From Amoebophrya sp. A120 (lineage: Eukaryota; Protista; Dinoflagellata), in the NCBI GenBank assembly GCA_905178155.1, contig CAJINV010000019.1, forward strand, positions 976,913 to 1,040,912: 64,000 nucleotides of DNA. Direction: 5' to 3'. Under the pieces are notes generated by a model that saw only the letters and a list, made by a program, of their open reading frames with translations, searched no databases and was not told the origin of the DNA. The translations under genes and the position numbers were made by a program. Shown here piece after piece: positions 39,601 through 63,100 of the stretch (position 1 is the first letter of the stretch; every line of letters starts with the position of its first letter).

Positions 39601-42239
39601 CCCCACCCCAGTGTTGTCATGCAAATCTGCATGCCAAAAAGGTTTCCCATGTGGAGCCGCATGAGAAGCGTTTTCTAGTCGTGTTTCAGAATATGTGATG
39701 CTCGAACCAGCACGATATGCTAGATCTGTGATGCTGCTGGAAGTAGCTAAACAGGATTACACTACAGGGTCAAATTTGTCATGCGAAACAACCAAAGCTG
39801 GATGATTTGTCTAGCAGATTTCCCATCTTGACTCTGGTGTGGGGATGTTTTTGCACAGGATAAATGCTCTCACCCGGGTGCTGGCGACAGACCACCCAAA
39901 GATTTCGATATCAAATGCAAAAGTGTCTGGGTCTGGAAGAATGCGCGACTTGTCACGCAGCTTTTCCATGACCCATGAGGTCTGGAATGCGAGACCCAGC
40001 ATGACAGATTCTCTGAGGTCTCTATCATGCCTTTCCTGCATGAGAAACTCCCTCTCAACTTGGTCAAAATGGGACAGCTTTTGGCACTCATGCAACACAG
40101 ATTTCTGCATGATTCGGATTTAGCATGACAAGTTGCAATCTTCCAGACCCAGACATTTTTGCATTTCATATTCGAGTTCTTCTTGTCATTCCTGAACATG
40201 GGCTGTTTCTTTCGCTCGTCATTATACTCTTCAGGCTGCTATCGTTCGTATCTGGTCTGCCGAAAGAAAGAACAGGACGGCTCTGCAATGAGGATGAGTG
40301 GAGACTCAACAGCTGCAGTGGCCTTCCCTGCTCGCTGTAGCCGATGGTTTCCAGCGTTGTGCAGATTTTCAACATGGGGTGAAAATTTGTATCCTGCTCC
40401 CGGTTTTTGTAGCTGCTGTCTTCTGCACCAGGAATTGCAACCAATTCCCGCAGGAATTTGTCACACCGGGCGATGGAGTAGGGCGGGTAGTAGGCGAAGG
40501 ATACAACTTCTTCTTTGAAATGAACTCTTGACGTCGAGGTGGACCTCACGACCTGGGGCTGGGAAAATTCTTCACTTTTCGCTCTGACACGAACTCCTCC
40601 GCGCCGTTCTTGCGCCTTGTGGTGTTCCGCCGCACATTTCTTGCCTTGTTGATCGTGAGCGTGATCTTCTTGATGTTGACCTCGGTGGAAAAAATAAGTG
40701 TACTTCCATGTAATAACACTGGAATTTTTTGTGCGCGGCGAAAATATCTTTTTGTTCGTCTGCATTTTTCTTGGGGAAAAATCTAGTCCGGCTTTAGTTG
40801 ACCCCGTCGTGAAGCCGCCACTGCACTTCGTGTTTAAGATTCGAAACCATTGAAGCTCCGGGTCATCATGGTCCTCGTCAGCAGTGGATTGTTCTGCACA
40901 TGGAATATCTCTTGTGCTGGTCGTCGTTGTGCTTCTATGACTATTGCTAATATCACCAGTTCTTGTCCCACCTTTGTCAACATGCCGTGCGGCGCAAACT
41001 TGGAAGCCCTTCCACGGCTGGGGATCATTCCCACGAACTTGTAGGCGGAATTCCACTTGGATGGGTGGTGTGAAGATTTTTTGCTGGCTCTCGTCTTCGT
41101 GATAATGGTCGTCAGGGGGTAGGTTCTCGCCGTCCTGCGCAGGTTCTACTTCATCTTTGGTGGAGGTATTTATCGTATGTGATGAATTACTTGTGCCAGA
41201 GTACTGCATCTGCAGCTTAGCTCGAAAATGGAACCAGAAGCTGTATTTCTGCGGCGTAAACTATCCAGGAAATAAAAAAGTATGTAAGTGTAACTTTCTT
41301 AGAGAAACAGCATTACAAATTTGCTCTACGTGACAGAGAAAACCTGTCATGCGTGGCTCGTAAGGAAAAACACACATGAAAAGAAGACTTCATGGCTGTC
41401 TGGCATGACAGGCGTGAGTCTGTTGCATGTTCTGCAAGACAAAAAATTTACACTTACAGAGTGGTTTTTTTCTTGCATATGAACTTCGGCAGGTTCGTGT
41501 CGTCCCGCATCTGCAGGTGGCAAACAATCTTGTCCGGTTTCTCGTACTGTTATGCATTGCAAATATGTGTGGGTCTGGAAAGTTGCCAGGTTTGTCATGC
41601 AGATTGTGTATGATCCATGATGCCTGTAATGCATGATCTAGCATCACAGATTTTTAGAGGGTTTCCTAATGCCTATCCCGCATGAGAAATGCCCTCCCCG
41701 CGTAGCACAAACTGGAGTCCTGTTGCTGGTCATGCAATACAGATTTTTTTCAAATCCAAAGACAGCATTACAAGTTCCAACCTTCGAGACCCAGACATTT
41801 TTGCATTTCATAACTGTGTCGACTTCACGATCACGTTGCCGCTCTCAAAGTCCGTGTCGATCGTGAGGTGGAATGGATGTTTGCTGTGATTTAACATATC
41901 TTCTTCATCTTTTCCACAAGCCACGGCGGAGCCAATTCTTGATGCAGGAGCTTCATGCAGCTCCTCGTCGCGGCCTGGCAGTACCACCTGGGGCTTGTCC
42001 TGCTCCAAGGAAGTAGCTACATTCGTCCCGATGTAAGCACCGCTCACCTTTGCGTGATTTTGCAGCGGCATAGACTCCAGATCACAGGCGTACGAGCTCT
42101 TTTTCTTCGTGCCATCTACCACTTCTGCACGGGGAGGGGGCACAACTGCTGGGCGTAACGAAGCGGCTGGTTTTTGTGCCCTCTTCGCTGGTTTTGTATG
42201 TGCCTTCTTCACCACAGCTTGGATCTTTTTGTTCTTCAT
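36669..42239 (-). CDS. Peptidase M14 cytosolic carboxypeptidase-like (CCP/AGBL/Nna1-type) protein, multi-exon with long low-complexity inserts
   Basis: After removing 6 introners: IDTDFESGNV, YSFWFHFR, FAYYPPYS, IGYSEQGRPL, RQHPGES, VVPLANPDGVALGN..GVNMNQDW and LDIHGDE. Confidence 0.85.
37011..37290. mobile_element. Introner family A
   Basis: DR TAGAA/TCGAA. Confidence 0.75.
39033..39296. mobile_element. Introner family A
   Basis: DR TTACT; splicing gives TNS|KGVN. Confidence 0.85.
39583..39862. mobile_element. Introner family B
   Basis: DR AATGC; splicing gives HPGES|IAS. Confidence 0.85.
39909..40170. mobile_element. Introner family A
   Basis: DR TTCGA; inverted near-copy of 4268-4532. 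Confidence 0.85.
41262..41479. mobile_element. Introner family D
   Basis: DR TAAAC/TGAAC; similar to 4731-4939. Confidence 0.8.
41551..41812. mobile_element. Introner family A
   Basis: DR ACTGT. Confidence 0.85.
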
Positions 42240-43470: not shown

Positions 43471-46400
43471 TTACTTCATCTTTGTCTTGTAGTTTGCATT
43501 GTTGTTTATTCCTGAAGTGGAAACACTTCGCGTCCTGCTCCTTGCTTTGTTCTTCCCTACGGTAGTCGCGTTTTTTTTGGATGACGAAGAAGTGCCGCGG
43601 TTTGCCGTATTACTACTGTTCTTGGGCGACTTACTGCTAGAAGTGATTTTATTCCCTCGTCCGGCCGCCTGCTTCATGCTGGACACCATTTTCATCGCTT
43701 GTGTGAAGAGAGCTGGTGGTGCAGTTTTTGGCTCTTCTTCTGCTTTCTCCTCGTCTTCATCATGATCAACTTTTTGCTTTTTACCACTCTTCTTGTCCAA
43801 CTTTTGCCGTTCGACCGTCTGCTGCCCAACCGGCGTGGCCTTCGCCGGATTTACCGCGTATTGCACCAAGCCGGCCGTACAGATGGCGTAGCCCACCCAC
43901 CCAATAAACTGCACCTCGGACGGGTGGGTGAGTCTGCTCACCATGGTGGTCACAAACTTGTAGCTGATGTTCGCCAACTATGAGAGTGCACAAATTCAAC
44001 TCCCCCTCATTTGAATTGTAATGCAAAATACCAAACTCACACCTTGCTCGTAAGTACTGCACGCATGACAAATTTTGGAACCTCAAATCGCACAACAATC
44101 TGCACGCAGATTTGTCATGCGAAAGCCCTTTTTCTGCTGTAGCTTGTGTTGCTGTTCATGCCATACAAATGAGGGGGAGGGGAAGTTGTGCACTGTCATA
44201 CCAACTGGATAGTGGTCGCGGAACAGAGGCCCTGGAGACCGAGAAGGAAAGAACCTGCCAAATACGACTTTTTTGTGCATGTAACCATCGTCCACGCGCT
44301 GTTGTCGTTGCTTTATGCATTGCATGAGATGAACAAGAAATGCTCTCTATTTCAGGAGGCAAAGCAACACAAGCAGCCGCAACGTCCTTATCGTTATCTC
44401 ATTTACCGATGCTAAACGCCAAGAGAGCGCTCAGGACCAACTGGATGAAGACGGGTCTTATGAGCTCCTGGATCTCCGCGAAGCCGACGCTTGCGCTAGT
44501 CCATTCATAGTACAGGATCGGCGGGAGGTATCGCAAGAATAAAACTGTGCTTGTGATGCAAGGGATGCAAAACGGTTAAGTACACTTGTGATACTAGGCA
44601 TGCGTCGTAGGTAATGGACCTTTCGCATTCACGTACCAGCCACGCATGACAGTTTTGGCTTGCTGTCACGTGGGATGCTCCTGCCCACATGGAAGAATGT
44701 ATGAAGAAACTTTCACATTCACTATACACAGTTTTTTTCTTGCATAGCAGGAACGGCATGGAAAAGAGCACGCGGTAGAAATTGAGCTGTATGGCGGACA
44801 GCTCCTTCTTGACCAGTTTCATGGTGACAGACTCGTAAACGCAGATGGTAGAAACGAAAACGACGTTCAGCATGGCAAAGGTATGCGACCAAAAAGTCGG
44901 ACTTTTTGTTCTCGGTTTTGCAGTGATCTCAAATCGAAATTGAAAGCTGTTCGTGACGAAAATTGGGTGGACTACAGACCCCATCTGCAAAGCGGAAGAA
45001 ATTGAAACGCTATATAAATGCTAATAATGCACATCAACCAAAAGGCAATACAAACCTCGGCGTGATACTTTCGAGACACGACTTTGAATTTTTTTGCGAG
45101 GATAATAGATCAACCCGGTGTACTCCATCTCCGCCTCAGCCAGCGTGTAGATGGCGGTACCTGGAACATTTTAAGTACGAACATTTGGATGAGCAAAACT
45201 GGAGGTTGTTCTTACGTTCTTACACGCGGTGGTGGAACAGCTAGCGGTTTTTTACGCATGACTGTGACTGACAACTAGAACTACAACTTTTACTTTACAT
45301 GTGCCCCAAAATTATACCGACAAAGGTCAACAGCAACCCCCCGATGGTTCGCCAGGACATTCTGACTCCCAGTAAAACTCGGTCGAGCAAAGCGGTCAGG
45401 AAAGGTACCGTATTGCGCGCAAGAACGTATCTGATGTTTTGTGATTCAAGTCTAGCATGATAAAGAAAAAATCGACGAAAGTAAGTATCTCTATCTTGAT
45501 CTTCTATCGTGGACATGGACAAAATCGAGGATAATAAACGATGATCAAAATGATCTGTCCTTGGTTCAGCAAAAAACCCTGGTCCTCCTTGCAATCTCGC
45601 ATCAGGCGGCAAGTCACGGGCGGCCCTTCATACCACCAGAAAAACCACGACGTACAACACGATCTATCAGGGAGATAACCTAAACAGGCTTTTTTACTAG
45701 GCTAAACTCACATTGCATAGCTCAATAATACAGTGGCACGCTGACTTTGCCGAGAGCGGCGATGCTGGCCCACAACATATCAAACGCAAAAATCTCTGGG
45801 TCTGGAAGGTTGCAACTTGTAATGCTAGCTCTCCATACCTAGGAAATCTGTATTGCGTAGCCAACAAAAGTCGCAGCCTCTTTTGTACACGCAAAAACGC
45901 AGTTTGTCATGCGGATTTCCTATGAGAAAGCGTTCTGAAAAGTTGTCATGCTGTGTTGCATTCGGAACTGTTTCCATCATCCACATTTTAGCATCACAAG
46001 TTTCCAGCCGTCCAGGGATTTTTGCAATCCATACAACACCGTGATCAGCCACGCGGAGTTCAGGACGATGCGCCACAGGTACTTTCGTTATCGCAAAAAA
46101 AAAGTGTTTCACTGTGAACTTGTGATGCATAGAATCGAACGCAGAACCATTTGTCGTGCTACACCTGCAAGGCATTGGACGTTTGAGCGTGTTTTCCCTT
46201 GGAAAGCGCGCATGGCAAATTTTCCGTGTCATGTGTAGCAAACTTGTGATGCGGATATTGCAAAACCATCACAGTGAAACAGTTTTTTCGTGGGATATTC
46301 GTGGCGGCAGTTTTAACGCGTGGATCCCGGTGACGTGCAAGAACCCGGCCCCACCGAGCGTTCCCAGATTTTGCACGGCGACCGTGGTGAAGTTGTGCGG

Positions 46401-48102
46401 AAAGCGAATCGCGATGGATTTGTTCATCAAAATCAGCACGATGGAGCTGCACGCGTGTCCGAGGAAGAGGAACGCGAGCCATCGGGTCGCTGCGTCGTGA
46501 AATTCGAAAACTTTCGAAAGGAACTGCATCTTCGTCGCGACAAAGCTGTAGGTCATGTCAACGCCGGTTTGGTAAGAGGAAGAGAAAGAAGCGGCGCACC
46601 TGTTGCCTTTTTTGCAGCAGGAATTGTAGCAAGAACGACTCTTCCGGTTATTTTTACCGCTTTTAATGTTCTTCTTTCCCGCCCATGTGGAAGTAGTAGA
46701 TCCGTGCCGTAGTTTTTTCTTCGTCCGGATCAGGTTTACTGTTCCCCGCCGCACTGCAGATGTCACAGGAAAAAACTGTTTCACTGTGATGATTTTGCAA
46801 GATCTGCATCACAAGAAGTTTGCTACACATGACAGAGAAGATTTGCCATGCGCGCTCCCCAAGGGAAAACACGCTTGGAGATCCAATGTCTTGCAGGTGT
46901 AGCAAGAGAGACACTTTGGTGCTTCTGTTTCATTTTCTGCATCACAGGTTCACAGTGAAACAGTTTTTTCTTGCGATAGCAGAGGGCGTTTCGTCGTCAC
47001 TCGAGGTTCGGCTCGACCGACTGCTTCCCCGGCGTATGAATTGCAAAAGGAAAAGTATCGCACTCGGCATTATATACAAGTTTGTAATGCGGATTTACCT
47101 GAACAAAAAGATTTGTAATGCAGGACTGCAATTACAACGAGTACGATACTTTTGCACAGGATACGGCGGGGAGATGGACAACTCTCTGAAAAATCTTCCC
47201 CGTGCTGCCGGTCCGAGCGAGAATCAGACTCGTCCGTGCCACCCAAATCTTCGTGCTCTCTCGAATCCAGTGTCGTGTTCCGGCTCACATTTCGTCTCTA
47301 TCAAAAGAAAAAATCCCCCCTCCCCATATCGGAATGGAAATCCGTGACGCGGGACTTGTGCACACCTATCGACTTTGCCATGCTTGCAGTAGAAGACTGG
47401 AGGCAGATGCAGAGCAGCAGAAGTAGGGGCGTTTTGGTGTAGGCGCCTAGCAAGGCAGGCATATCCTCTGTAGGCGACACAGCATTACAAAGTGCCTGCG
47501 AAGCGCGGCTGAGTCTCTGGCTTTGCCCTCTTGCAATACAGGGACGATTTGTGGCCACAAATCAGCATCACAAATGTTCAGGAGTGTCCCTTTTTGGTAT
47601 GGGGAGAGGAAGTTTTTCCTTGCAATAGCCTCGGAAGCTGCTTCTGACTGTCGAGGGCGCTGCTAGCCCGTACGCCACGGATGTATGTGGTTGTAGTTTT
47701 TGTAGCTCTGCAAGTCTCCGAAGTAGATTTAGTGTCAATTCCTGCAGCTCCTCCAGAGGACACCAAAATAGAACCACTACAACCTGGTGGTCCAACAGCT
47801 GCGGTCTCCTGCTTTGAACCGCTGCTTTGTAGTTGTCCGCTCTGGTGGCCAACTGCGGCACCGAAAACCAGCTGCTGTTGGCCTTCCTTGCTCCGTCCCC
47901 GCCCGCCCGCGTTCTGCGCGAGCGTGATCGAATCCCGTATCCGCTTGTAGAGTGGCTCTTTCGATGAAGATGGTGCTGGTGGAGCTGCTCCTGTACTAGT
48001 CGTGCCGGTTAATATACTTTTCAACATCTGGCGCGGCCCCCCCGGCAACTTGTAGTTCCCTTGCTCACGGCCCTGTTCTGACGTGCTGGCTCGGGGCAGC
48101 AT
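43471..48102 (-). CDS. Nucleotide-sugar / triose-phosphate transporter family (SLC35-like) protein with long N-terminal extension
   Basis: CSSIVLILMNKSI..FPHNFT.VAVQN, SVPLY..ARNTVPFLTALLD and LSAIQLNFY, with multiple TM helices. Contains 7 introners plus canonical introns. Confidence 0.8.
43979..44200. mobile_element. Introner (singleton type)
   Basis: TIR TATGA.AGTGCACAA..CTCCCCCTCATTTG; DR CCAAC. Confidence 0.85.
44529..44746. mobile_element. Introner family D
   Basis: DR GGAGG/GCAGG. Confidence 0.75.
45778..46033. mobile_element. Introner family A
   Basis: DR CAACA. Confidence 0.85.
46089..46297. mobile_element. Introner family D
   Basis: DR TTCGT. Confidence 0.85.
46761..46978. mobile_element. 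Introner family D, inverted relative to 46089-46297
   Basis: DR GCAGA; left end TGT. Confidence 0.85.
47035..47163. mobile_element. Introner family C
   Basis: DR CGGCG. Confidence 0.85.
47299..47627. mobile_element. Introner family E
   Basis: DR GTCTC/GCCTC. Confidence 0.8.
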
Positions 48103-49569
48103 GATGGCGCTTGTTCGTGGTCCAATAGGTAGCTTCTTGTCCTTTCGCTGGACCAGCGGGGTGCGGGGATGACACGCATCCGTCGGCAAGGTTGTTTCAC
48201 TTGTGCAAAGCAAAAGGTTGAACAACTCGGGTATCGTAGATATAGTTGACAGAATGAACAGCTCGACGAGGACGACGCGGTGCAAGAACCAAAGAACGAA
48301 GACGAAGCAAACGATTATCAACCAGTTTCTTTCATGTAGGAAAGACCAAAAACTGCTCGTCAGTATACACGTAATTAGACTGTGACTGACTACATAGAAT
48401 AAGAAGATCAGCCTTAAGGATCGTCCTGCTTGTGGTCAGCACTCTCACAACTCATGTGAAAAATCAAGAACGGGTTCGGGATCTGATCTTCCAAAACAAG
48501 GAACCGAATCTTTTCGACCCAATCAGCTCCGATCCACAGGAAGCGGAGTGCGAACACAAAAAATGGTATATACAAAGCGCACTTTTTACTCTAGCACGAT
48601 GAAAAGCGGTCGCCTGAGAAGGGATTTTTACTTTGGGTGGGAAACAGTACCACGATATGGAGGTGGATATTTCGTGTTCAACGCGAAAATCGGGTCGCGG
48701 TCGGGGATCACGCCGGGGCTGGCGTAACATCAAAAGGTTGTGTGCACAGATGGGTGGACTTGCAGAAAGTAGTTCGGTGGGAGGTTCGAGCTTTGTCTCG
48801 GACTATTGTGTTCATTTAACTACTAAGTACTTTTAAACTTATCAAAAAATGCTTGAGTTCCACCTACTTGTTGGGCATAGAGATAGAACTGGAACTGCTT
48901 GGTAACATGTGGGGAACGTCTACGGGGGACATACAACAAGCGGCATGCTTAAAGATTCGGAATGAGGAATAGAAAAGGAATGACGCGTGCGCTTCTCAAG
49001 GTGAGCGGTAAAAGGAAAAGACTCCCGCATACTGTAGTGCAATTCTCAGAAGAAAAAACGATAAAAATGGTGCATTTGATATTACGCCTGTGCGCGCGGT
49101 GTCTGAAAAGTTAGAGGCAAAATAGATACGAGAATAAATGAAGTTGCAGCCACTTACTCTCTCTCTGGACAAAGTACTTTCTTTCTTGCGATCTTGTCGC
49201 GGATGGTTCGAGCAGGACCTTTCGGCATTCTTCTTGTCTTTTTCCGACCCTTTTCTTCGTTCGATCAGTGTACGACCTTGGTAGTCACACATCAACATGA
49301 AGTAGCCTTTTTCTCGTTGAACACGACGTCACAATCATACAGCCGATGCGCAAGATGAATTCCGAACTCCTAACTGCGATGGATATGGAAATGCAATGAA
49401 TATGAAAACTTAAGTAAAAGAAGTGATAAAAGTATGTCAGAATATAACCAGGCTCCGCTTCCTGTTTCTGATCTTGTTGATCTTGTCCTTGTGCGAGTGC
49501 GACTGCGTGATAATAAGACCGTGCTTATTATTTTTGTGGAACATTCCCGACCGAGGTTTCGTCTCAGTT

Positions 49570-50037
49570 CTAGAAGTTCAGGGTGTTGGAATTGAAACCC
49601 ATGGATTCCTTGACTTGTTCCACGTTGGACTTGACCTGTTCCACGAGAGTTGATCGCGGGCGACCAGGGTTGCAGCAGTCCCTCTGCTGGTTGTCAAAAT
49701 CCTGCGGGCAGGTAGCCATTCCATTAGTACAATTCGAGGAGCAGAGGTCCGCCCAGTCGTTGCAATGATCCGTGAAAGTGAATTTGTCCGCAGTCCACTC
49801 GGTCTTGTCGTTCTCGCAAAACTCCGCCTTAAATTCGGCTGCCGATCGCGTTTTCATTCCGATGCATTGGGCCAGGGCCTGACTGGCTAGACGTTCGTGC
49901 TCCATGAAGCCCGCCGGCAGTGTTTCGCTTCCTTCCCAAGAGTGCGTGGTCGTGGTGTGGTCCTTCTTCGTCGCTGCCGCAACGACCCCCCCCCCCAGGG
50001 GGCCAGCGGCAGCGACGACGGCGACTTTTTTCAGCAT
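49570..50037 (-). CDS. Small cysteine-rich, possibly secreted protein
   Basis: Hydrophobic N-terminus (MLKKVAVVAAAGPLGGGVVAA) and 8 Cys in the mature region. Confidence 0.5.
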   Translation of the reverse strand: MLKKVAVVAAAGPLGGGVVAAATKKDHTTTTHSWEGSETLPAGFMEHERLASQALAQCIGMKTRSAAEFKAEFCENDKTEWTADKFTFTDHCNDWADLCSSNCTNGMATCPQDFDNQQRDCCNPGRPRSTLVEQVKSNVEQVKESMGFNSNTLNF

Positions 50038-51099
50038 TTTGCGGTGTTGGCGCACCCGCTTTTTTCAAAGCACTTGCCTTTCTTACTCGTCTAAGACGGT
50101 GGATGTTGTTGAAAAGAGAAGGACAGATGCCCACTTTCTTAATGTCGTTGGACGATAATTTTCTTCTTGCTCTAAAGCAAATCTCGACCCGGGAGGGTTG
50201 TAAACAATTGGGAACTGGACATGCGAAAAAGATTGAAAGGCTAAATGAACAATTCCACATCAGAGTACAAACACGACGCGGAAGACCACAAAAACGACGA
50301 CCTCTATGGATTTTATGCGTTTTGCTTTTGCTTCCTTACATCAGTCAGTGAGAAAAAGATTACGAAGGTACAACACTTTTTTTAACTCAGTTTTACATTT
50401 TATCTTGCACCACGATTCATTCAGTTCCAGACAATATATTTCTGACGAATTAATATGGGACGAAAGGCTGTGCTGGGAAAGGACGTTACCATGCGCAGAT
50501 ATTCAGTCCGGACGATGAGGAAAATAGTAGACCACGAGGACGATTGATTATGTCGGAAATTGCCACTGAAGGAACGAACTTCTTGTTCTTCTGGACGTCA
50601 GTATTAATTTTAAAACATTTAGTGCTATTCACACACTGTCGTGCGAAGAACAAGTAACTATAAAACGGGGCCGCCCTATCTTTAGCAGACACAAATTGCT
50701 CTTTCAGAACAATACTGAAGTGCTCAAAATGTACTTTCGGTAGAACGCCACGACCTTCACAAAAGGTGACGACAGAGAACGCAAACGCAAACGGTAAGAT
50801 TCTTACCCTGCAACTACAGAACAGCGCAGATGCGTGCCGCGAAGATGAACGAAGGCTACAACTAGCGAAAGAAAAGTGCAGCTGCGAAGACATTCGAAGA
50901 ACATTCTGATTCTGTATGATGGTATTCAACATCTTGCGCACCTTGCGGAATATCTTCGTGCTGTCGTGAACAGAGAACATCACGCGTGGTCCCCAACTAC
51001 TATACACCGATTCAGCCTCAGCAACCTACCGCGGTTAGTAGAGAAAAACCGCTCAAAGCCAACAACATGCGCCCGTCTACTTCATACGTATGAAGTTTT

Positions 51100-54000
51100 C
51101 TACCTTCTCGTACTCCGTCGCCTCTCCTCCTCCTCGCAACAGCCCGGCAGCACGGAGTACGACGCAAAAAGCCCGCCCGGCATGGCTTGCTCCACAATGA
51201 AGCTCGGGAAGATCTGCATGTTGATCAGGGACAGCGTCTCCAGAATCGTCAGCTCCGGGTCCGTCACGTCCGTTCTCAGCTGCAGGTAAAATATCCCACA
51301 AAAAAACTGTTTCACTGTGATGATTTTGCATGAATCGCATTACAAGTTTGTTACACATTACACAGAAAATCTGCCATGCGCGTTTCCCAAGGGAAAACAC
51401 GCTCCAAAATCCAATGTCTTGCAGGTGTAGCAAGACAAATAGTTCTGCGTTCCATTTTCTGCATCACAAGTTCACAGTGAAACAGTTTTTTCTTGCGATA
51501 TAAAACTCCCCATCGTCGATCACCACCATGCCGGACTGCGTCTATCAAAGTGAAAAAAGCCCCAATCCCATATCCAAAAGACGCTCTGCGTTGCTGGATT
51601 TGTGTACACAAATGAGCTTTGTACTGCAGCAAGAGCTTGTCGGCATATTCTAAGCCGATCTGGTTACGCATCCTGCTAGCAGCTGAGCATGAGAAACGAC
51701 AACAAGTCTGACATAGGCGAAAACGCACGACAGCCTCGCTGTACAATGCGCCACATGGGTGCCGTTTGCCTTGTACGGATGACAAAGCTGACGTGTCCTT
51801 GTGGTCAGCACAAATTAGCATCACAAGTTTTCTTTTGTTCGATATGGGGAGGGGGGAGTTTTCCTTCCAATAGCGTCAAATCGGTCTTGATCGGACAGTC
51901 GGGGAAGCCGGCGGAAAATTGCTCAATGAACGTCGTGGTCATGTTGTTTTTACCCAGAGATTATCGAATGCAAATATACCTGGATGTCTGGAAGATTCTG
52001 AGACTTGTCATGCATGTTTTTCATCAGCCATGATGTCTGTAATGCATGCCCTAGCATCAAAGATTTTTTGAGGGCTTCTTGATGCTTATTCCGCATGACA
52101 AATACCTCTGCTACCGCGCAGCAGCAATTAGACTCCTTTTGCTGTTCGTGCAATACAGATTTTTTTGGAATCCAAATGCAGCATGACAAGTTGCATTCTT
52201 CCAGACATCAAGGGATATTTGCACTTGATACAGATGAATGAGGCCCAGCAGCGCCTCGGCCGGGGTTTATAACCAGCTCATGTGTTACAATCTCAAACGG
52301 TGCAATAGAATATGGAAATCTGTGATGCAAGAGTGCATGACCTAGCCAACTCTTATAGGATTGCACATGACAAGTTCTGGAGCCCCAAACCCCCCTACAG
52401 TCTGGCGAAATTTGTATTGCAAAAGGTGGAACGCTGTGCGAGTCTGTCATGCTCATCATGCAACACAAGTTCCAGATTCTATTGTAACGTTTGAGATTGT
52501 AACGTTTGAGCAAGTCATAGGGTTCGCCACCGGTGTCCACTCGTCGGGGATCGAGTCTTCTTCTTCCGACGAATTTACAGGCGGCGATGAGCCGTCAAGT
52601 CGCGACGAGGCCAACTTTGCAGCGGGGCTCGAAGTAGAAGTAGAGCCCCCTGCTACAACCACTACTTGTTGTCCTCTTTTTCTCGTCAAATTCGCAGTGA
52701 CAATTTGCCGCGATTTGATCGGGCCTTGGCGGGTAGTTATGACCTCCTTGATCGAAATTTCGTCTGGGATTTGCGTATTCGCCCCTGCGGCCACGGCCGC
52801 GACAGAGGAGGCGGTGGTAGAAGAATTGGAGTACGTGTCCGCGTCATCCTCGACAAAACCGAGAATGCGGGACCTGATACATAATTGGTACAATGATCAC
52901 GATCACATCAATGATCTACTCCCTCATACAGCAGTCCGACGAATCGTACTGAAATTTTGTCCTCGTTACGCGGCAGATCGTTGCAAAAATCTTTAAGTAT
53001 AGAATCAATCAATCGAGTTAAATTCTTACCCTTCGTCCAAATTTTTGTCCCATTTTCTCCTTTTTTCCACGTCCGTGAAGTACTCGTACACCAAATCAAT
53101 GCTCGCCTTGATCTTCAGCGACACCCGCCACCTCCGGATGCCTAGCTCCGTCTTCTGGCTGTAGATTTGGATCTTGTCCCCCTGCGATTTTTCCAGCACC
53201 CAGTCGGATTTGTTCTGCAAAAATCGCGGGTAGGTCGCCTGTAACCGATTGAGGCGCTCTTTCACCACCGCGGGTAGGTGCTTCTTCGCGATCTTTTTGG
53301 GCGAAAACCGGTTTGGAGAGCTGGAGAATTCGGTCTCCAGGTCCGAATCTTCTAACTCGTCCGCGTCGATCTCCGCTTGTGGATAATTTTCCCCGGTTGT
53401 AGTGGATAAAGCAGGTTCTACTTGTTTTCCTATTCGTGTTCTGCTACTGCTTTTATTCTTACTGCTCTTCACCGGACTGGTACCTCGCACATCTTCTTCG
53501 AGCAGTTGGTAGTCTCCGTAGAAGCCAAACCAAGGGTTCAGAAACTCCAAAGAGTTCGCAAAGTCGATTGCTTGTAGGAACTTCTCGAGCTGCTTCTCCT
53601 ATCAAATGCAAAAGTGTCTGGGTCTGGAAGAATGCAAGTTTGTCATGCTTGTCTGGCATGACTCGAGAATCTGTGTTGCATAGGTACGAAAGAGCCGTCT
53701 TAACTGTCATGCGAAAAGGCAGTTTGCCATGCGGAATACGTAAGACATGGCTGCACCCACAAAATTTGTCATGTATACCTGCGTATTGCGGCGCGTCTAT
53801 CATTCATTTTTAGCATTACAAACTTCCAGACCCAGACATTTTTGCAGTCCAAATCTCCCGCTCCTCGATGATTTTCATTTTCCCGCTGGCAAACAGCTTT
53901 TTCTGCGGGAAGTCGGGGAACTTCTGCGGCCCCAGCTGCTCGTACAGTATCAAAGTGAAAAATCCTCCCTCCCCATATTGAAGCGGAAACTTCTGTTGCT

Positions 54001-56053
54001 GGATTTGCGTACACTAATCAGCTTTGTCTTGCAGCAGAGGACTGCACGCAGCTCGCAAGCCTGGATAGGTGCCTCTTAATGTAGGCGCCTAGCATGGTAG
54101 ACGGCTGCCCTGTAGTCCTTACAGCATCACAAATCGCCTGCATAGCGTGGTAGAGAGCCTGGATTTGCCTTCTCGCAAGACAGACAGGATTTGAGGTCAC
54201 AAATCTGCATCACAAATTTTCAGAAGATACGTTTTTAATATGGGGAGGGGGGATTTTTCCTTGCAATATACAGCTCGCGGAACTCGCTGTACCGCTTCCA
54301 CACGGAATACAGGATCTCCTGAGATGAAGAGGACGAAGATGAAGAATTCGCGGTTCCGCTATCTATCCTGTGCAAAAGTATCGCACTCGTACTAATTGCA
54401 GATATGCATGACAAATCCAACTTTCTACCTGAAGTAGCATGACAAATTGCATTTTTGTTCTTAGGAAAATTTGTAATGCAATTCATACTAGTACGATAGT
54501 TTTGCAATGCATAAAATGATCGGCAGGATTTCTTTGTTCCTCCTCCGCCGAAGATTTTCTTCTTTTCGAAGAAGATATGACTTGCTCAAACCAACGTTAC
54601 AATCTCAAACGTTACAGTAGAATCTGAGACTTGTGTTGCATGATGAGCATGACAGACTCGCAGAGCGTTCCACTTCCTGCAATACAAATTTCGCCACATT
54701 GTAGTGGAGTTTGGGGCTCCGGAACTTGTGATGCGCAATCCACCTCCAAGAGCTCGCTAGATCATGCACTCTTGCATCACAGATTTCCATAACCTTTGAG
54801 ATTGTAACACCTGAGCGGGTTATAGAAGACGAGGACGTTTTCTGTGGCTTCGTCCGTTTGTTGTTATCCAGTGTAAAAATGTCTGCGTCTGCAAACTTGT
54901 GATGCTGGGTGGCGTCTCATGATGAGGCCACAAGTGCTGGCTCAGCATGACAAGTTTCTGAGCTTCTAGGTGTTGCCCATTCTGCATGACAAACTGCGTT
55001 TCTGCATCACAGAAAAATGGAGCTCTTGGGTAACGTGCATGACAGATAGATTTGAGAGTCATGCCAGACAAGCATGACAAACATGCATTCTTCCAGACCC
55101 AGACATTTTTGCACTTGATAGTTGTGGGACCGAGACAACGCGACCTGGTAGAATCCGGTTTCATCCTCGACTTTGGAATCAATTTATTGTGAGGAAAAAT
55201 ATCTTCCCCTCCCCATATCAAAAGGAAGTTTCTGAAGCGGGATTTGCGTACACAAATCAGATTTCTCTTGCAGAAAGTGCTTGGCGGCATTTTGATTTTC
55301 TGAGCCTGTTTGGGTATGCAGGAGGCTAGCAATTACGCATGGCAAACAGGTTTGCAGTAGCCGAAAGCGCATGACAGATTGGCTTTGGAATGCGCCACAT
55401 GGCTCCTATTGCCCTATAGGCAAGACAAAGATGATTTGTGACCACGAATCAGCATCACAAATCTCCATTTTGATATGGGGACGAGGGGGAATTCTTCATT
55501 GTAATACAATTACGTGCATCACGAGCGGTGGGATCGAGGGCGGGGATGCTGTTAAGGCAGAAGTAGCTGGTATTTCTTGCTCCGTTTGAAGATGTTCTTG
55601 CTTTCTCTTGTCTTTGGACCGTCGCCGCTCTCGCACGTCGGAAGTGAGGGAACTGTGATCGGCGCTGTTTGCGCGGAGCTGGTTTTGCGCTCCCGCGCGC
55701 TTGGCCCCGCAACAGGCGAGAATGGTTTTTTTCAAGAAAGCGGTTAATCCGGATTTCGGGAAGAACCCGAAGAGTTCGAGAAAACAGGTGAGGACAAGGA
55801 GGAAAAAAACCGTTTCGGAAACTACGATGGTGAAATCGCGGTTGCCGCTGGAAAGAAGGTCGAAGAAAAATGTCAGGAGTCTTGTGAACAAGGCGGGCTG
55901 GTGGTGCACGGAGTCTGCGCCGTCGTGGGGTTCTTGCGCTTTGCCTCGGGCCAGCTGGAGGTCTCCTCCGGTTGCACCTCCAACGTCGGTGCTGGTCGTG
56001 GATGGGTGCTCAGGCGAGGGCTCGTTTGTTTCACTGCTGAAAAGTGAAAACAT
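51100..56053 (-). CDS. Membrane-anchored PX-like plus START-like lipid-binding domain protein, multi-exon
   Basis: N-terminal TM (VFFLLVLTCFLELFGFF), PX motif YSVWKRYSEFREL, START-like IKASIDLVYEYFTDVEKRRKWDKN. Contains 10 introners. Confidence 0.65.
51292..51500. mobile_element. Introner family D
   Basis: DR TAAAA. Confidence 0.85.
51543..51872. mobile_element. Introner family E
   Basis: DR GCGTC. Confidence 0.8.
51962..52230. mobile_element. Introner family A
   Basis: DR GAGAT/CAGAT. Confidence 0.75.
52268..52519. mobile_element. Introner family F
   Basis: DR GGGTT; near-copy of 11609-11865. Confidence 0.85.
53600..53853. mobile_element. Introner family A
   Basis: DR TCTCC; right end AAA. 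Confidence 0.8.
53948..54268. mobile_element. Introner family E
   Basis: DR TACAG. Confidence 0.85.
54364..54513. mobile_element. Introner family C
   Basis: TIR clear; DR degraded. Confidence 0.7.
54576..54824. mobile_element. Introner family F (inverted)
   Basis: DR GAAGA; reverse complement of the 52268 type. Confidence 0.85.
54865..55120. mobile_element. Introner family A
   Basis: DR GTTGT. Confidence 0.85.
55185..55506. mobile_element. Introner family E
   Basis: DR CAATT. Confidence 0.8.
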
Positions 56054-57126
56054 TTGCTTGCTGCTAGCGTGCGGGAGAAAAAAAGGAAAAATCGGCAGCG
56101 TAGATGAACTACATCAAGTGGTTGCTCAGAGCTGCACCGCGTGGTCCAGCTCCACCAGGCGCGCGTGTCAATGCTTCCATAGGAATTTTCTGTGCGCACT
56201 AGCTAGTACAGAAGCGAAACGCGAACTTATATGCGCAAAAAAACTGAAAAAACCGTGGCTCCTCGTTGTTGAGCAGTCACCTTCTTATTTTAATTTTGGT
56301 AAGACCAGCGACCGAGATAAAAAGAATAAAATATCACAGAGCTATAAAAAATGCTCTCGTTCTTGGAAAGAAACGTCGCCGGCACGTCGGCGAACACCAC
56401 GAGAAGTCACCTAGTATCGACTGAAAGAAGTACAAACTATCCACTATCCGCTGTTCGGGCCGCTGCTCGTGCCCTCCGAGCTCCTTCTAATACCTTAGAA
56501 GTACTACACGCCACCAGTTGCGACCAATGTGTTTCTCTTTTAATTATGGAATAAATCTCGTGCGTTTATGAGGTGCTCCGATGCGCTTGTTGTACTTCTA
56601 CTGCTCCGACATTCTAGTTCTTTCAACTATCCCTGTTTCACAATGAAAATTGATTCACGTGACACATGTTAGTCACTCGAGGGCGATTCGAGTCCACGAG
56701 TGATGATGCATTTAATGACATCCTGCTTACTTTCTACGGGTGAATTGTTCTTCGATAGCAATAGGGCAATACGTAAAAGTATTTTGACTGAAATGCGTAG
56801 GCTTTGGCTCTCCACGTTCCTTGCAAATAAAAAGACCAATGAATATCATATCTCCGTTTTCATGTCGAAAAACAGTAGTACGTTCGACCTGCGGTTTTTT
56901 CGGTTCTCATGCTCCGATCGGAAAGCACGAACAGGATCACCAGCAGGAGAGTCTCTACTATTGATTAAATGGCGCATTATTTGTTGGTTATTTTTCTGTT
57001 TCTGTACACAATGCAGTACTAAATCGAAATCATACGTACAGCGATCAGATGACAAAGAAGTGCGTTGTACTTCATTGAAGACAAAGGAGCGTATTGCAAT
57101 CTACTACCTCAGAGCTCCGAACTCCT

Positions 57127-60100
57127 CTAGCAGTTCGGACTGGCAACCACCTCCGCATGCAGGCGGAGCTCGAACATGGAAGTAAAATCCGGGTCGCAGA
57201 ACTTCACCAATTGAAAAATTTCGTCTAACGCCGTTAACGACTATGCATTGCAAATATATCTGGGTCTCGAAACTTGTGATGCTAATCTATCTATGAACTG
57301 TGGGGACACTGCAATAGGCAGCCGCGCATGACAAGTTTCTGGGCTCCTTTGTGATTCGCTTTCCGCATGACAAACTACATTTTTGCATGACAGGCAAGAG
57401 GCTCTTTTCCTGCTCACGCATTACAGGTGTAAGAGTCATGTGAGACAAGCATGACAAGAAACCTTGCACCTTTATTCCAGACCTAGACATATTTGCAGTG
57501 CATAACGACGTCGCGTTGTCAATGTTCAGCAGTTCCTGCCTCGCGATCTCGTCTTTGGTCGGTGTAGACGTATCAAATGCAATTATGTCCGGGTCTGGAA
57601 ACTTGTGATGCAAGTCCGTGGAAAATAAAGCGCTCTGTAATGCGCAGCCGCCAGGAATGACAAGTTTTTTCGTGCTTCTGCGATGCGTATTTCGCATGAG
57701 AAACTGCGCATTTGCATGACAGGCAAGAGAACCTCTTGGTGGCCACGCAATACCGAGTGCAGAATGAGAAACATGCCAGACTAGTATGACAAATCTCGCA
57801 ACCTTCCGGACCCAGACATTTTTGCATTCGATAAGACGCTGCGGTTGTGGATTTCTTTTTCTTACCGCCCACCACCGTGCTCGCGTCGTCATCCACCAAC
57901 ACGGGTGATTTCACGCTGGTCTTCGACGTTTTCGCGATGCTTTCTGTCACCTCGGAGGCAGCCTCATCAGCGCCGTTAGAGAGGACCACACTGGATTTCG
58001 AAGAAGTGACCGACGTCGCGGACGGGCGCTTTTCCTTCTCCTCGGGTTGTTTTGTAGTTTATCGCACGAAAAAAGTGTTCCAGTTACACATTTGTAGTGA
58101 ATTCAGCAACACAAATTTCTCGGCATGAGAGAGAAAACTTATAGTGCAGAAATCGTACGGGAAAACACCTACGAAACGAAGCCCCTATGGATATCCGGCA
58201 TGACAGAGCTTGTCTGTCTTGCTCAACCTGCAACACAATTTGTAACTGTAACACTTTTTTCTTGCGATATAGTAGTTCCTGATTCTCTCAATACTGAGGA
58301 CCTGCTGCTCTTCCCAAGATTGCTGGTTCTTTCATCCTGCTCTTCTTGTTGCTCTGTAGTAGCTTTGCATGCTGTTGTACTATCACGATCCGCATCTACT
58401 TTATCCTCCACAGATTTAGCCTCTGCTTCGCCGGCAGAAGTTGTGGCTGCAGGAGCTTTCTCTTCTTTTTTTTCGCTTGTTCTTGCGTTTTCATCTTTAT
58501 TTTGTTCACCTACCTGCTCAGTTGTAGACTCCTTGTCAGCATCTGCTTTGGTGTCGTCGACATTCGCATTTATTCCGCTGGCGGCGTGACTCATGTTCGT
58601 GCTTCTTCTGGAACCGACGTCGTTGGTATGAGAGTGCACAACTACTCTTTCCAAAGCTCATCTGTAGGCCACGAAGAGCACAACTACAAGTTCGCTATCG
58701 GGAAAAAAAAAAAATGCAGGTTCTGTATGACATCAAAGTCTTACGAGATTGTAATGTTTCTATTTGGGCTGCTACAAGCTAGCAGTGTCACGCAGTGCAA
58801 AGAAGCAAAGACTGGAACTGCAACTGGATTAATTATTTGGTATGTTGCATGACAAAAAAGGGGAAGATTAAATTGTGCACTCTCGTCATAGTTAACCACG
58901 GCGGATTCCGCCAGCTGTAAGAGCTCCGCAACGTGATCGGGCAACTCCGACAAGTTATCCAAGAAAAAAAGATTGTATGAGTAACTTTCTTGGAGGATTA
59001 GCGTGACAAATATCACTCGCATGACAGCAAAAACCTGTCATGCGCAGATAGTACGTGAAAACGCCCTTGAATGGACCCTACAATGCAGGCACAGCATGAC
59101 AGGCGCAATCAATTTGCATTTTGAGCATCACAAATTTACACTGACAACGCTTTTTTCTCGGATACAGGTCGCTGATGGTCCACTGGTACTCCAACTGATA
59201 TCCCGTGTAAAAGCGTCCCCATAGTTGTCATGCAATTCTGCATGACAAAAAAGTTTCTCATGCGGAGCTCTATGAGAAGCATTTTCTATTCGTGTTTTGG
59301 AACAATTTGTGACGCTAGAACCAGCATGCTATGCTAGATCTGTGATGCTTCAGAACTGGCTAAATAGGATGGCACTACGAGGGCAAACTTGTCATGCCAA
59401 ACAACCAAAGCTGGTTGACTTGTCTAGCAGATTTCCCATCTTGAGTCTGGTGTGGGGACGTTTTTAACCAGGATAGCTGATTTACCGTCCCCATCCCGAT
59501 GCGCTCCATGTCCCGGAATTTCCGCTCCCACTTCATGCGGTGGGAAATTTCCGGGAGCTGCGAGCAGATGCTCAGCCGCACTGCCTGCACGATCACCTGG
59601 AATTCGAAGGTGTTGCGACTCAACTCCAGCTCCGTGCCGTATCTCTTATGAATTGCAAAAGTATCGTATTCGTATAAATGCATTACAAATTTGCTCAGCA
59701 TGAGAAATGAAATTTGTAAATGCGGCTTTGCTTTCAGAAAAAAAATTGTAATGCATGGTCGCAATACGAGTACGATACTTTTGCACAGGATACCGCTGCA
59801 ACTTGGACAAAATCTCCGTCACGTGGGAGATCGCGGTGTCCACTTCGCCCCGCATCTCTTCAATGTCCTATCCTGAGTAAAAACGTACCCACGCCAGAGT
59901 TGTAATGCGGATTTGCAAAGACAGGAAGACTTGTAATGCGCATCCCCATGAGAGCCATTTCCAGTCGTGTTTTGGAATTTGTGATGCTGTGAACAGGATG
60001 AGCAGATGAATCTGTGACGCGGCTGCACTTGCTAACCTGCACTACACTGCAGAGCGCAACTTGTCATGCGTGACTCACAAAACTCCTAGGTTTGTGTTGC

Positions 60101-63100
60101 AAAATCCCCATCCTGACTCTGCTGTGGGTACGTTTTTACTCAGGATATGTCCGTCAAATGCTTCAAGTTGATCAAAATCCGCTTCGGAAGGGATTGGTGC
60201 TGGTGCGCTGCGGTGCCTGCTCCAGTTGCAGTTCCCGGCGGGAGCATGTTGTATTGCTCCTGTTGTGCAGCACTAGAATTGTTGTCCTTCGGGAGCTATC
60301 AAGTGCAAAAATTTCTGGGTCTGGAAGAGTGCATGTTTGTCATGCTTGTCTGGTATGACTCTTAAATCTGTCATGCACGTTGCCCAAGGGCTCCATTTTT
60401 CTGTGATGCAGAAACGCAGTTTGTCATGCAGAATAGGCAACACCTAGAAGCACAGAAACTTGTCATGCTGAGCCAGCATTTGTGGCCTCCTCATGATACG
60501 CCACACAGCATCACAAGTTTCCAGACCCAGACACTTTTACATTTGATAAGAGCTTTTCCAGCACCTTCTGTACCTTCGAGGCGTACTCGCTCGCCTTGTC
60601 GTGTTACAATGAAAAATGCCCCCACCCCAAGTTTCTGATGCAAGGTTTCCAAATGAAAACTTTTTGTCTTGCATGAACCGGACTGCGAGTCTTTGTGATG
60701 CAGAATCTAGGATAGGATAGTAAGGTATCTTTTACATGACAGGCCCGGCTGCTGCTGGGCTCTTGCGCAACACAAATTTGAGCTATTCAGCATGGCAAAT
60801 TTGGGGTGCTGATATATGCAAGACGGGGAATGTTTCTATTGGAAAGGTTTCCCATACGAATGCTGCCAAGTTCAGCGGTGGGGGCATTTTTCATTGTAAT
60901 ATGTCGAGATCCCCCTTTTTGCAGTACGCGTCCCGCAGACAGCTGTAGGCGCCGGCGATCAAGAAGTCGTTTTTGTTGCTGCTTTTCACGGACAAATCCA
61001 GCGACCGCTGGTACTCGTTAATGGCCTCCGTGACCATGTCCGCGCGCACGTAGACGTGGCCGAGTAGCGAGTGATACCACGCGGTGGTCCCGTGCACACG
61101 GCCAAACGCCGCTTTCGACAGCTCGACGCACTTCTTGGCGACGGAGAGAATTTCCGCCACGTCCGCGTGTACCGTTTGATACAAAGTGTCCAGCCGCTGG
61201 CGCCAGAAATCTAACAGCAGCGGGTGGTCCTCCCCGAAGTTGTACTCGATGTGCTTTGCAATGTCTTCGAAGGAGAGGTCAAACTGCGCGTCCGAGGGGT
61301 CCGGTAGTTGGACCACGGAATTCTTGGTCGTCCCGCTTTTCCGTTGCTTTGCCGTGACGATCCCGGTGTCGAACAGGCGGTGCTGGTACGCCTGGCTTGC
61401 GAACGTGAGCCAAAGGTTTGGGTCGTCCTCGAACAGCTGCAAGGCGAATTTCGAGGCGGCCTTGGCCTCCTGGAGATTGCTGTCGTTGGCCGCGTTGTTG
61501 ATATTTGTGATGCCAAACTGCTGCTGAAAGGTGGCGGTGCTGCTTTCCGACACTAGATGGTCGATGTACAGGCGCAGGGCCTGGTCCAGACCGTATTCCG
61601 AACCAGATTTGTCGATCAGGTAGCCGTTGTTCTGCTGCAATCTCCGACAAGTTGTGGTCAGTAAATGCTCCGCAGGGTTCATCTTGGTCGTCGACGCGGA
61701 CATGTTGCTGCTCGTGGCAAAGTTGTTCGGGTACGCGGACTCAGCCGGATCCAGGGTCGCACCTGGATAGAAGTTGCAGTACTAAGCTTGACTTTGTCAC
61801 TTGCACTTCTGCCTTGCTCTGGTTACTTATCCTGCTCGACTGTTTCATCTAAATATCTCCCTTGTCATGCTGCAACCGGGCCCATCTGTCAACAGGCGTC
61901 AAAAAAAGCGTTCCCTGCGGGGATCGAACCCGCGCCCACCCTCGAGAGTTTTCGATGAGGTGCCGCGCAGAGCGCCGGCGCTTCTAAATGTGATGAAGGC
62001 GCTCTACCACTGAGCTAAGGGAACCTGATCTGACTACGTTGAGCAGAATTCCCGGCAGGTGGTCAGAATAGCCATGCTAAACACTGGGCTTCGGGCAAAA
62101 CAAGGAGAAAGCCAAGCCACGTCAGCGCACCTCGTCCATCATGCGGCGCAGGTGGCCGGTATTTTGTTCATCGATAACTACAAAGAAGACCATCTATCAG
62201 CAGATGTCTTCGATTACCGCAGGCATATTCTACCAGGAGGCGCAGCGCACACTTTGCGCCCCAACTAGACGGCGGCCACCCGCGATCCTTCAAAAAAAGC
62301 GCGTTCCAGGATTCGAGCCTGGATCTCTCAGTCACTGCCCGGGGTCAGTCTTCTCGTTGCGACCTGCTCTCGCTACCAGCGAGCTCCTTCGCCCTGGGTG
62401 CGGCGTCTCCGCGGCTGGTCGATGAATGCGAGAGCTCGTCCTGCGTGCCGCACTATCCTGCATCAGCTCGGCCTGGTTTTTGTGTCTTTACTCATGCGGG
62501 TACTAGCTGTAGTAGATCCACTGATCGTTCCAGCATTTCGCCCTGAGCCTCGGCAGCAACCCGGCGAGCAGTTGCCTTGGCTTGCGGACACTTCTGACAT
62601 CGTCCTGCAGACTCATCGCACCAACACCACGTCTTGACTGCCCGACCCAGGGAGCACAGGTTCGACCGAGCGCATTACCAATTATGCTAGCCGCGCAATT
62701 GAAATAGTTCATCAAGTCAAAACCCGGGTCACCAGAATACCTTTGCTAAATACCGTATAAAATATTAGTCACGAGGAATTCAAATATATACCAATTGTCG
62801 ACGTCGCATTCGAGCTGCCGGTAATCGCGTCCTGCTTCATATCAAATGTAAAAATGTCTGGGTCTGGAAACTTGTGATGCTGGGTGGCGTCTCATGATGA
62901 GGCCACAAATGCTGGCTCAGCATGACAAGTTTCTGAGCTTCTAGGTGTTGCCTATTCTGCATGACAAACTACCTTCCTGCACCACAGAAAAATGGAGCTC
63001 TTGGGTAACGTGCATGACAGATTTAAGACTCATGCCAGACAAGCATGACAAACCTGGCAATCTCCCAGACCCAGACATTTTTACAATCCATACTTCAAAC

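Follow-up and report, generated by a model that had tools for sequence, protein, structure and literature searches.

Introner elements in the minus-strand genes of the window

We analyzed a 64,000-nt stretch of the Amoebophrya sp. A120 genome (assembly GCA_905178155.1, contig CAJINV010000019.1, forward-strand positions 976,913 to 1,040,912), hereafter the window, in whose numbering all coordinates are given. The host reading frames are all on the minus strand. Among and within them we curated 59 dispersed elements, 57 of them 129 to 330 bp long, bounded by TAT...ATA terminal inverted repeats (TIRs) and 5-nt direct repeats. These are the introner elements of Amoebophrya sp. A120 described in the accessible text of Farhat et al. 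2021 (PMC7789003). The elements are cut from RNA in both orientations, always as the element plus 5 nt, and the evidence argues strongly for a single cut register, N-UAU...AUA-NNNN, whose polarity follows that of the transcript.

One candidate, at 26371-26624, is introner-like and has intact inverted ends; as it has no direct repeat and lies outside any restored frame, it was dropped, leaving 58 elements for analysis. Our element detector is symmetric and gave no hit in one shuffled window. In the position table of the 58 elements, the TIR opens with TAT and an A-run lies about 11 to 14 nt in. Fifty-six elements are 129 to 330 bp long, too short for an internal transposase gene. The element families repeat across unrelated genes of Amoebophrya sp. 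A120.

We also collected 158 metagenome loci (L001 to L158) from one assembly, which hold 351 unique elements; 51 with weak strand calls were dropped and 300 were used, so that totals of 357 or 358 copies below refer to the 58 window elements plus these 300. The host strand at the metagenome loci was called with a codon model that was right for 58 of 58 window elements, and 179 of 182 neighbors agreed. The 5-nt direct repeat is perfect in most copies, including 257 of the 351 at the metagenome loci.

Both orientations occur in six of the seven multimember families of the window and, in the per-family count that an earlier note on this sequence had proposed as a check, in 11 of the 13 families (70% identity) formed by the 300 metagenome copies. 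The largest of the latter split 93:78, 34:22, 20:9, 15:8, and 10:7, none of these five departing from 50:50 at p<0.05. Taken together, TIRs, 5-nt target duplications, and random orientation indicate a transposon origin of the elements. Nearest neighbors more often have the same orientation (188 versus 137), an unexplained bias whose observations are possibly nonindependent.

The earlier note had listed near-identical copies in opposite orientations within minus-strand genes. All pairs were confirmed, with blastn used for all but 46089 and 46761, which were scored differently; elements are named here by their first position. In family 0, 54864-55121 matches 60549-60296 (inverted, 91.9%), 60304-60551 matches 63085-62837 (inverted, 92.0%), and 4271-4532 matches 40166-39909 (inverted, 85.9%), while 54865 and 62840 are direct copies (91.6%). 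In family 5, 11609 and 52268 are direct (90.7%), 52268 and 54576 inverted (85.3%), and 11607 is inverted relative to 54826-54575 (83.7%). In family 1, 46089 is inverted relative to 51292 (88.6%) and to 46761 (87% over 92 nt; interior alignment score, 0.70 inverted versus 0.28 direct). With 84 to 92% identity in the long alignments, "near-identical" was a generous term. Trimming 20 nt off each end left the orientation calls unchanged, and the calls are thus no artifact of the symmetric ends.

Removal of the elements at the RNA level

Deletion of each element together with 5 nt opens minus-strand frames of 597, 1043, 1394, 515, 238+501, and 713 aa, which cross 5, 14, 6, 5, 10, and 10 elements, respectively, and retention of 42 of the 58 elements would cause a frameshift. 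Elements 46089 and 46761 both fall within the 515-aa frame, in one gene. Three exon translations are 100% identical to Amoebophrya sp. A120 database proteins. P0002 (1324 aa) and P0003 (711 of 711 aa) match the gene models in full; P0001 agrees at 18 of 19 junctions, and at the 19th it agrees with the right end of element 6688 at 8499. Pfam Ion_trans and TPR domains lie on the minus strand, and one of the runs, X3, has an untemplated stretch of T at 56527 that marks a poly(A) on the minus strand.

Runs X1 to X4 come from one sample. Their RNA nature was judged by the behavior of their contigs, only a guess being on record: X1 skips one canonical GT-AG intron and has no cover inside a second. 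All 13 elements lying wholly inside 54450-61000, in both orientations, are skipped in all four of these RNA-type runs. Each skip equals the element length plus 5 nt, and element 54364 is a fourteenth case by its loose end. In the DNA-type run X5, pieces span the whole of element 44529-44746 and extend across the borders into others. As RNA-type contigs skip the elements and DNA-type contigs keep them, removal takes place at the RNA level. Contigs show presence only and drop rare variants, such that rare empty DNA sites could escape. The raw-read runs X9 and X10 contributed just 82 and 2 partial reads, respectively, at repeat motifs, and no back-joined form is listed in the RNA contigs, which is uninformative. 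Canonical introns are found on the same transcripts as introners.

For the opposite-orientation pairs, all on minus-strand transcripts, exact joints were seen in all four RNA-type runs for three copies. These are family 0 element 54865..55120 (orientation B, TAT..ATA; repeat GTTGT; joint 54859>55121; intron 54861-55121 under the inferred register), its inverse 60297..60548 (family 0, orientation A; repeat GGAGC/AGAGC; joint 60292>60550), and 54576..54824 (family 5, orientation B; joint 54569>54824). In three X1 contigs, length accounting balances exactly over four intervals (181, 330, 505 including a canonical intron, and 1154). By such exact accounting, 46761..46978 (family 1, orientation A, with the 3' end ACA instead of AUA; 181=181), 51292..51500 (family 1, orientation A; also P0003), and 52268..52519 (family 5, orientation A; 661-156=505; also a P0003 match) are removed, as is the canonical GT-AG intron 52874..53029, which is also in the P0003 model and shares its transcript with ten introners. 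For 46089..46297 (family 1, orientation B), an RNA contig piece starts at the element edge, at 46298, and the frame is open. Database proteins and open frames are the evidence for removal of 4268..4532 (family 0, orientation A; P0001 match; GT..AG in the inferred register), its inverse 39909..40170 (family 0, orientation B; P0002 match), and 11609..11865 (family 5, orientation A; P0001 match). For 62840..63092 (family 0, orientation B), which is probably in the same gene as 60297, an 823-aa open frame suggests removal. The expectation that both orientations are removed was thus borne out by joints, length accounting, and frames.

Two host genes on the minus strand are described here. The P0003 gene (711 aa; 51103..56113; RNA contigs and protein match) contains ten introners in both orientations, so that 52268 and 54576, in opposite orientations, lie on one transcript. 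The second is part of a TPR-containing gene (56527..61781; RNA contigs, frame, and Pfam), with ten introners, extending to the poly(A) site at 56527. Inside one of its elements, 59647, a 71-nt skip at 59693-59765 was seen in all four runs, with one side only 20 to 24 letters long; it probably reflects a shorter paralogous copy elsewhere.

A probable single cut register set by the transcript

The position of the cut can be read where the two copies of the direct repeat differ. We scored this as k, which counts the retained bases of the left copy, as read on the plus strand. The most informative copy is 54364..54513 (family 2, orientation B), whose repeat has decayed to CTATC/AAATG. Its loose end at 54515 in all four runs gives k=1 only, i.e., removal of exactly 54360-54514, and a P0003 residue is compatible with that cut alone. 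In RNA, k is 1 to 2 for 59647..59792 (family 2, orientation A; repeat 3/5; joint 59642>59794, four of four runs), at least 1 for 59199..59475 (family 3; joint 59194>59477) and for 60297, and 0 to 1 for 47299..47627 (family 4; a contig piece that starts at 47628 and has no further letters). It is at most 2 for 58956..59164 (family 1; joint 58949>59164), at most 3 for 58627..58890 (repeat 3/5; joint 58621>58891), and at most 4 for 58060. Database proteins give k of at least 1 for 51962 and at most 4 for 3952. Through P0001, 10711..10860 (family 2, orientation A) is placed at 0 to 1 and 6688..8499, a 1.8-kb introner with a nested insertion and a repeat of 2/5, at no more than 1, the value also found for 37011. 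All of these elements are likewise in minus-strand genes.

The only value that fits all 13 mismatched copies (eight by RNA and five by database protein only) is k=1; random independent cuts share one value in 0.6% of draws of 13 copies. The intron in transcript sense is then N-UAU...AUA-NNNN, and all eight copies able to separate 1+4 from 4+1 favor 1+4. The opposite-orientation family 2 copies 54364 and 59647/10711 share the same transcript-sense cut, indicating that the polarity comes from the transcript. Different sites in the two orientations, the outcome that would have spoken against orientation-independent removal, were not seen, with one B copy in the comparison. As 1 and 4 add up to the 5-nt target duplication, an insertion would be silent in the mRNA whatever its site or orientation.

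The earlier note had made the direct repeat part of the recognition signal. Element 54364 keeps two of the five repeat bases and is joined with zero shared bases, which shows that the repeat is not needed; 59647 is joined with one shared base. A clustering of repeat mismatches beside the cuts, hinted at in the window, was not replicated in the 300 metagenome copies (26, 18, 16, 22, and 11).

Two bases near the ends are polarized with the transcript

In the inferred register, U+2 and A-7 are invariant in all 58 window elements, and their mirror positions vary. Among the 300 metagenome copies, U at +2 had no deviants versus 10 at its mirror, A-5 (p=0.002), and A at -7 had one versus nine at its mirror, U+4 (p=0.02). 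This polarization persists in three stricter subsets, and deviant numbers are balanced at deeper stem positions. The search pattern starts at repeat position 8 and the detector is symmetric; thus, neither imposes the polarity. In transcript sense, A-7 is kept in 357 of 358 copies, making it a candidate branch only.

The kinds of change differ between the two base pairs. At +2/-5, there were no U>C and nine A>G transitions; at +4/-7, there were eight U>C and no A>G (Fisher p=4e-5). As the transitions are opposite at the two pairs, neither pairing nor one strand-biased mutation process explains them. At +4/-7, the tolerated U>C breaks the stem and the absent A>G would keep it, arguing that A-7 is read as a base. 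We therefore strongly infer that U+2 and A-7 are read as bases, not only as pairs.

Three of the 58 window elements read GT..AG in the inferred register, and a link between GT..AG ends and a decayed AUA, hinted at in the window, was not replicated in the 300 copies (0/9 versus 26/291). In 59647, both repeat mismatches are those that give GT..AG ends in this register, a single case. The next exon starts with no purine bias (A19, C14, G14, T11 in 58 elements). A U is present at -15 to -17 in 52 to 54 of the 58 elements. Copies of either orientation have a U-run from -15 to -19, but this run is the mirror image of the 5' A-run, and its conservation has no polarized excess. Both orientations are predicted to fold with their ends paired (z of -3.5 and -4.8), in keeping with the proposal that the information lies in the symmetric TIRs. 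Extension of the stem into the direct repeats was not enriched in the copies analyzed.

Machinery of removal

Orientation-independent removal had been taken to mean that recognition cannot use a strand-specific branch point or polypyrimidine tract. Our data do not support this: whichever way a copy lies, the AUA and U-run close to its 3' cut are the same. The symmetric ends yield the same UAU, U-run, and AUA both ways, and orientation independence therefore leaves a spliceosome possible; two-way removal excludes only signals in the asymmetric interior.

We lean slightly toward removal by an altered spliceosome with A-7 as the branch. The inverted ends appear to fix the cut, a single base ahead of the opening UAU and four bases past the closing AUA; for the altered spliceosome, the paired ends would stand in for GU-AG, and the stem could replace the U1-dependent pairing of the intron ends. 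In position, N-UAU corresponds to a donor of the GUAU type, and spliceosomal chemistry constrains U+2 and an A near the 3' end more than any other intron bases. The accessible text on A120 reports U2, U4, U5, and U6 along with 83 of 89 spliceosomal proteins, and no detection of U1 (PMC7789003). A more general proposal, that a code without terminal dinucleotides is read through U+2 and A-7 in the transposon's own inverted ends, with cuts 1 and 4 bases beyond them, either by a U1-less spliceosome or by a new RNA cut-and-join machine, seems to us evenly balanced.

Several points weigh against the favored explanation. The spliceosome assignment depends on a resemblance in two bases; neither a lariat nor a branch was seen, nor was an enzyme. 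Neither of the two canonical introns checked has an A at -7. Positions +1, -1, and -2 are unconstrained; GT..AG ends show no enrichment, their 12 occurrences in 358 copies being close to the number expected from the margins, and +1/-1 shows no pairing preference or covariation (p=0.10). A-7 is predicted to be paired with U+4 in the stem, which would have to be opened. An excess of G-U over A-C in the stem, seen in the window at one of three stem lengths tried (40 versus 21, p=0.02), was not replicated in the 300 copies (139 versus 122, p=0.32), so that the data do not demonstrate selection for pairing in the stem. As to the register, the chance of a shared cut is 6.6% for the eight RNA cases alone, the within-family orientation test depends on one B copy, 54364, the four RNA runs come from a single sample, and the database proteins may have been built on related data. 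The 300 metagenome copies come without RNA and from a single assembly and are biased to A-run families.

A doubtful though serious alternative is a nonspliceosomal protein endonuclease acting with an RNA ligase, which would use the same register and read the terminal stem with U+2 and A-7. Such removal has been proposed in outline for euglenid nonconventional introns, in the parts of that literature accessible to us. It would fit the lack of base preference at either cut, the predicted pairing of the ends in mRNA sense in most copies, and the failure to detect U1 (PMC7789003, accessible text), and Euglena introns, with circular products, follow a similar asymmetric spacer rule, N3-CDG...CH'G-N5-6 (PMC12501133, PMC11282704, in part). 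Against it, the polarized U+2 and A-7 match the most conserved bases of spliceosomal introns, and the introners lack a central helix of the bulge-helix-bulge type: 38 of 357 copies reach three of four pairs, a count for which no chance level was computed. In a bulge-helix-bulge, a 4-bp helix joins the exon end to the intron 3' end between two bulges.

Self-removal of the RNA, or an RNA polymerase jumping the hairpin, by structure alone would accord with the strong folding of both orientations. We consider it improbable, given that elements with unrelated interiors of 129 to 330 nt, as well as the two that carry insertions (0.7 and 1.5 kb), are without exception either removed or annotated so, that Rfam finds no ribozyme in the window, and that a polymerase jump would need the direct repeat that 54364 lacks.

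Two further alternatives are nearly excluded. Transposase-like excision, one of the routes suggested in the earlier note, is taken here as excision from DNA or by a transposase through the inverted and direct repeats, and the TIRs, 5-nt target duplications, and random orientation do speak for a transposon origin; it is very improbable in view of the DNA-type contigs, which retain the elements (44529-44746 whole, others entered at their borders) that RNA-type contigs skip, the asymmetry of the cut with the transcript, the transcript-polarized conservation, and the dispensable repeat. Least probable of all are template-switching artifacts of reverse transcriptase, whose classic signature is short direct repeats with strong hairpins, both present here, since 54364 is joined with zero and 59647 with one shared base, removal restores frames over up to 14 elements, and 42 of the 58 elements would put the frame out if kept.

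Other features of the window

P0001 (1782 aa, Ion_trans domains; 2971-15368, minus strand) crosses 19 introners plus canonical introns. Among these, 6688-8499 contains a nested insertion of about 1.5 kb (about 6715-8262) rich in inverted purine repeats, and P0001 crosses it in the same register. Parts of the insertion match metagenome loci L020 and L021 at 95 to 98%, indicating that it is itself mobile. A 790-bp introner at 13382-14171 likewise holds a nested element of about 660 bp with 90-nt inverted arms (13441-14104).

A 9-nt motif, TTGTnATGC or its complement, occurs in both senses inside otherwise unrelated families, in the window and at L001 to L158; it may be a binding site of the mobilizing enzyme or an internal stem unit. 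As a branch signal, the internal motif (UUGUnAUGC/GCAUnACAA) was rejected, its distance to the 3' end not being fixed and some copies lacking it.

A GC-rich open reading frame of 1452 aa (21941-26296, minus strand) has weak Pfam matches below the curated cutoffs (integrase core, rve, E 0.007; RepB primase, E 0.003) and is possibly a mobile element. Its surroundings have no clear TAT...ATA ends, and no link to introner mobilization is shown. A tRNA gene at 61909-62024 (minus strand; Rfam, 48 bits; 116 nt) lies inside a 1-kb canonical intron (61763-62791) and probably contains an intron itself. ARAGORN reported no tRNA in the window, where Rfam finds this one. A possible second tRNA-like stretch lies near 62290-62390.

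Comparison with known introns and introners

More than 60% of Amoebophrya introns are non-GT-AG, and their route of removal is an open question in the accessible parts of the literature (PMC7789003, PMC11282704). The window's elements resemble the A120 introners of Farhat et al. in their TAT-starting inverted repeats with an A-run, 3- to 5-nt repeats, families, and non-GT-AG ends; in strain A25, the repeats start with TTA. As far as that text could be consulted, it gives splice sites as variable relative to the hairpin (1 to 5 nt in the S23 legend) and the border as unknown, and it proposes hairpin-guided removal with U1 missing; "strand" gives no hit in it, and "orientation" is used of genes only (PMC7789003). 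The border was left unknown because direct repeats blur it. Relative to that account, we add removal in both orientations, one register at -1/+4, a dispensable repeat, and the polarized U+2 and A-7. In the literature surveyed, figure images and subscription papers being outside our view, we found no orientation counts, fixed register, polarized bases, or branch candidate for Amoebophrya introners.

Ordinary introns differ in requiring GT(GC)-AG ends of the U2 type, with which 12 of 358 introners have GT..AG in common. Introns cut by the tRNA endonuclease are defined by a bulge-helix-bulge, whose helix the introners do not form in general (38 of 357). DNA-level excision, as in the cutting out of miniature inverted-repeat transposable elements (MITEs) or of ciliate internal eliminated sequences, involves an element-free DNA copy, whereas the DNA-type run X5 keeps the elements.

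Closer likenesses are found among MITE-derived and related introns, as described in the accessible parts of the sources cited. Euglena nonconventional introns share inverted end motifs, spacers shorter at the 5' than at the 3' end, and a probable MITE origin; they are excised as circular products by a machine that is unknown (PMC12501133, PMC11282704). They have CAG/CTG motifs, spacers of 3 and 5 to 6, and a purine opening the next exon, whereas A120 introners have UAU/AUA, spacers of 1 and 4, and no purine bias, so that the signature N3-CDG...CH'G-N5-6|R does not describe them. In Fritillaria borealis, the removal of MITE-derived non-GT-AG introns is attributed to an adapted spliceosome; these introns prefer the ends AG-AC and AG-AT, in contrast to A120 introners, which have no preferred dinucleotides (PMC11282704).

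Introners of Polarella glacialis and Aureococcus anophagefferens are derived from DNA transposons, insert in either orientation, and restore the mRNA through a target duplication, as do those of A120 (10.1101/2020.10.14.339549, in part). They have ordinary splice sites, GT/GC/GA with AG, carried or recruited, and an orientation bias in several classes. A120 introners follow no dinucleotide rule, with +1, -1, and -2 free, and no family is significantly off 50:50. Orientation independence alone is therefore less surprising, having been published for other introners: the elements, and two-way introners in other organisms, were already known, and it is the proposed fixed register with its polarized bases that we did not find in the literature surveyed. 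The register and the two bases predict the branch nucleotide, the mutations that would block removal, and the freedom of the repeat and the interior. A single register would explain how tens of thousands of insertions are tolerated and would allow corrected annotation of these genomes. If the code without terminal dinucleotides is real, any copy, anywhere and either way around, would be a perfect intron, its removal a domesticated neutralizer of transposon insertions, and the element potentially a portable scarless intron.

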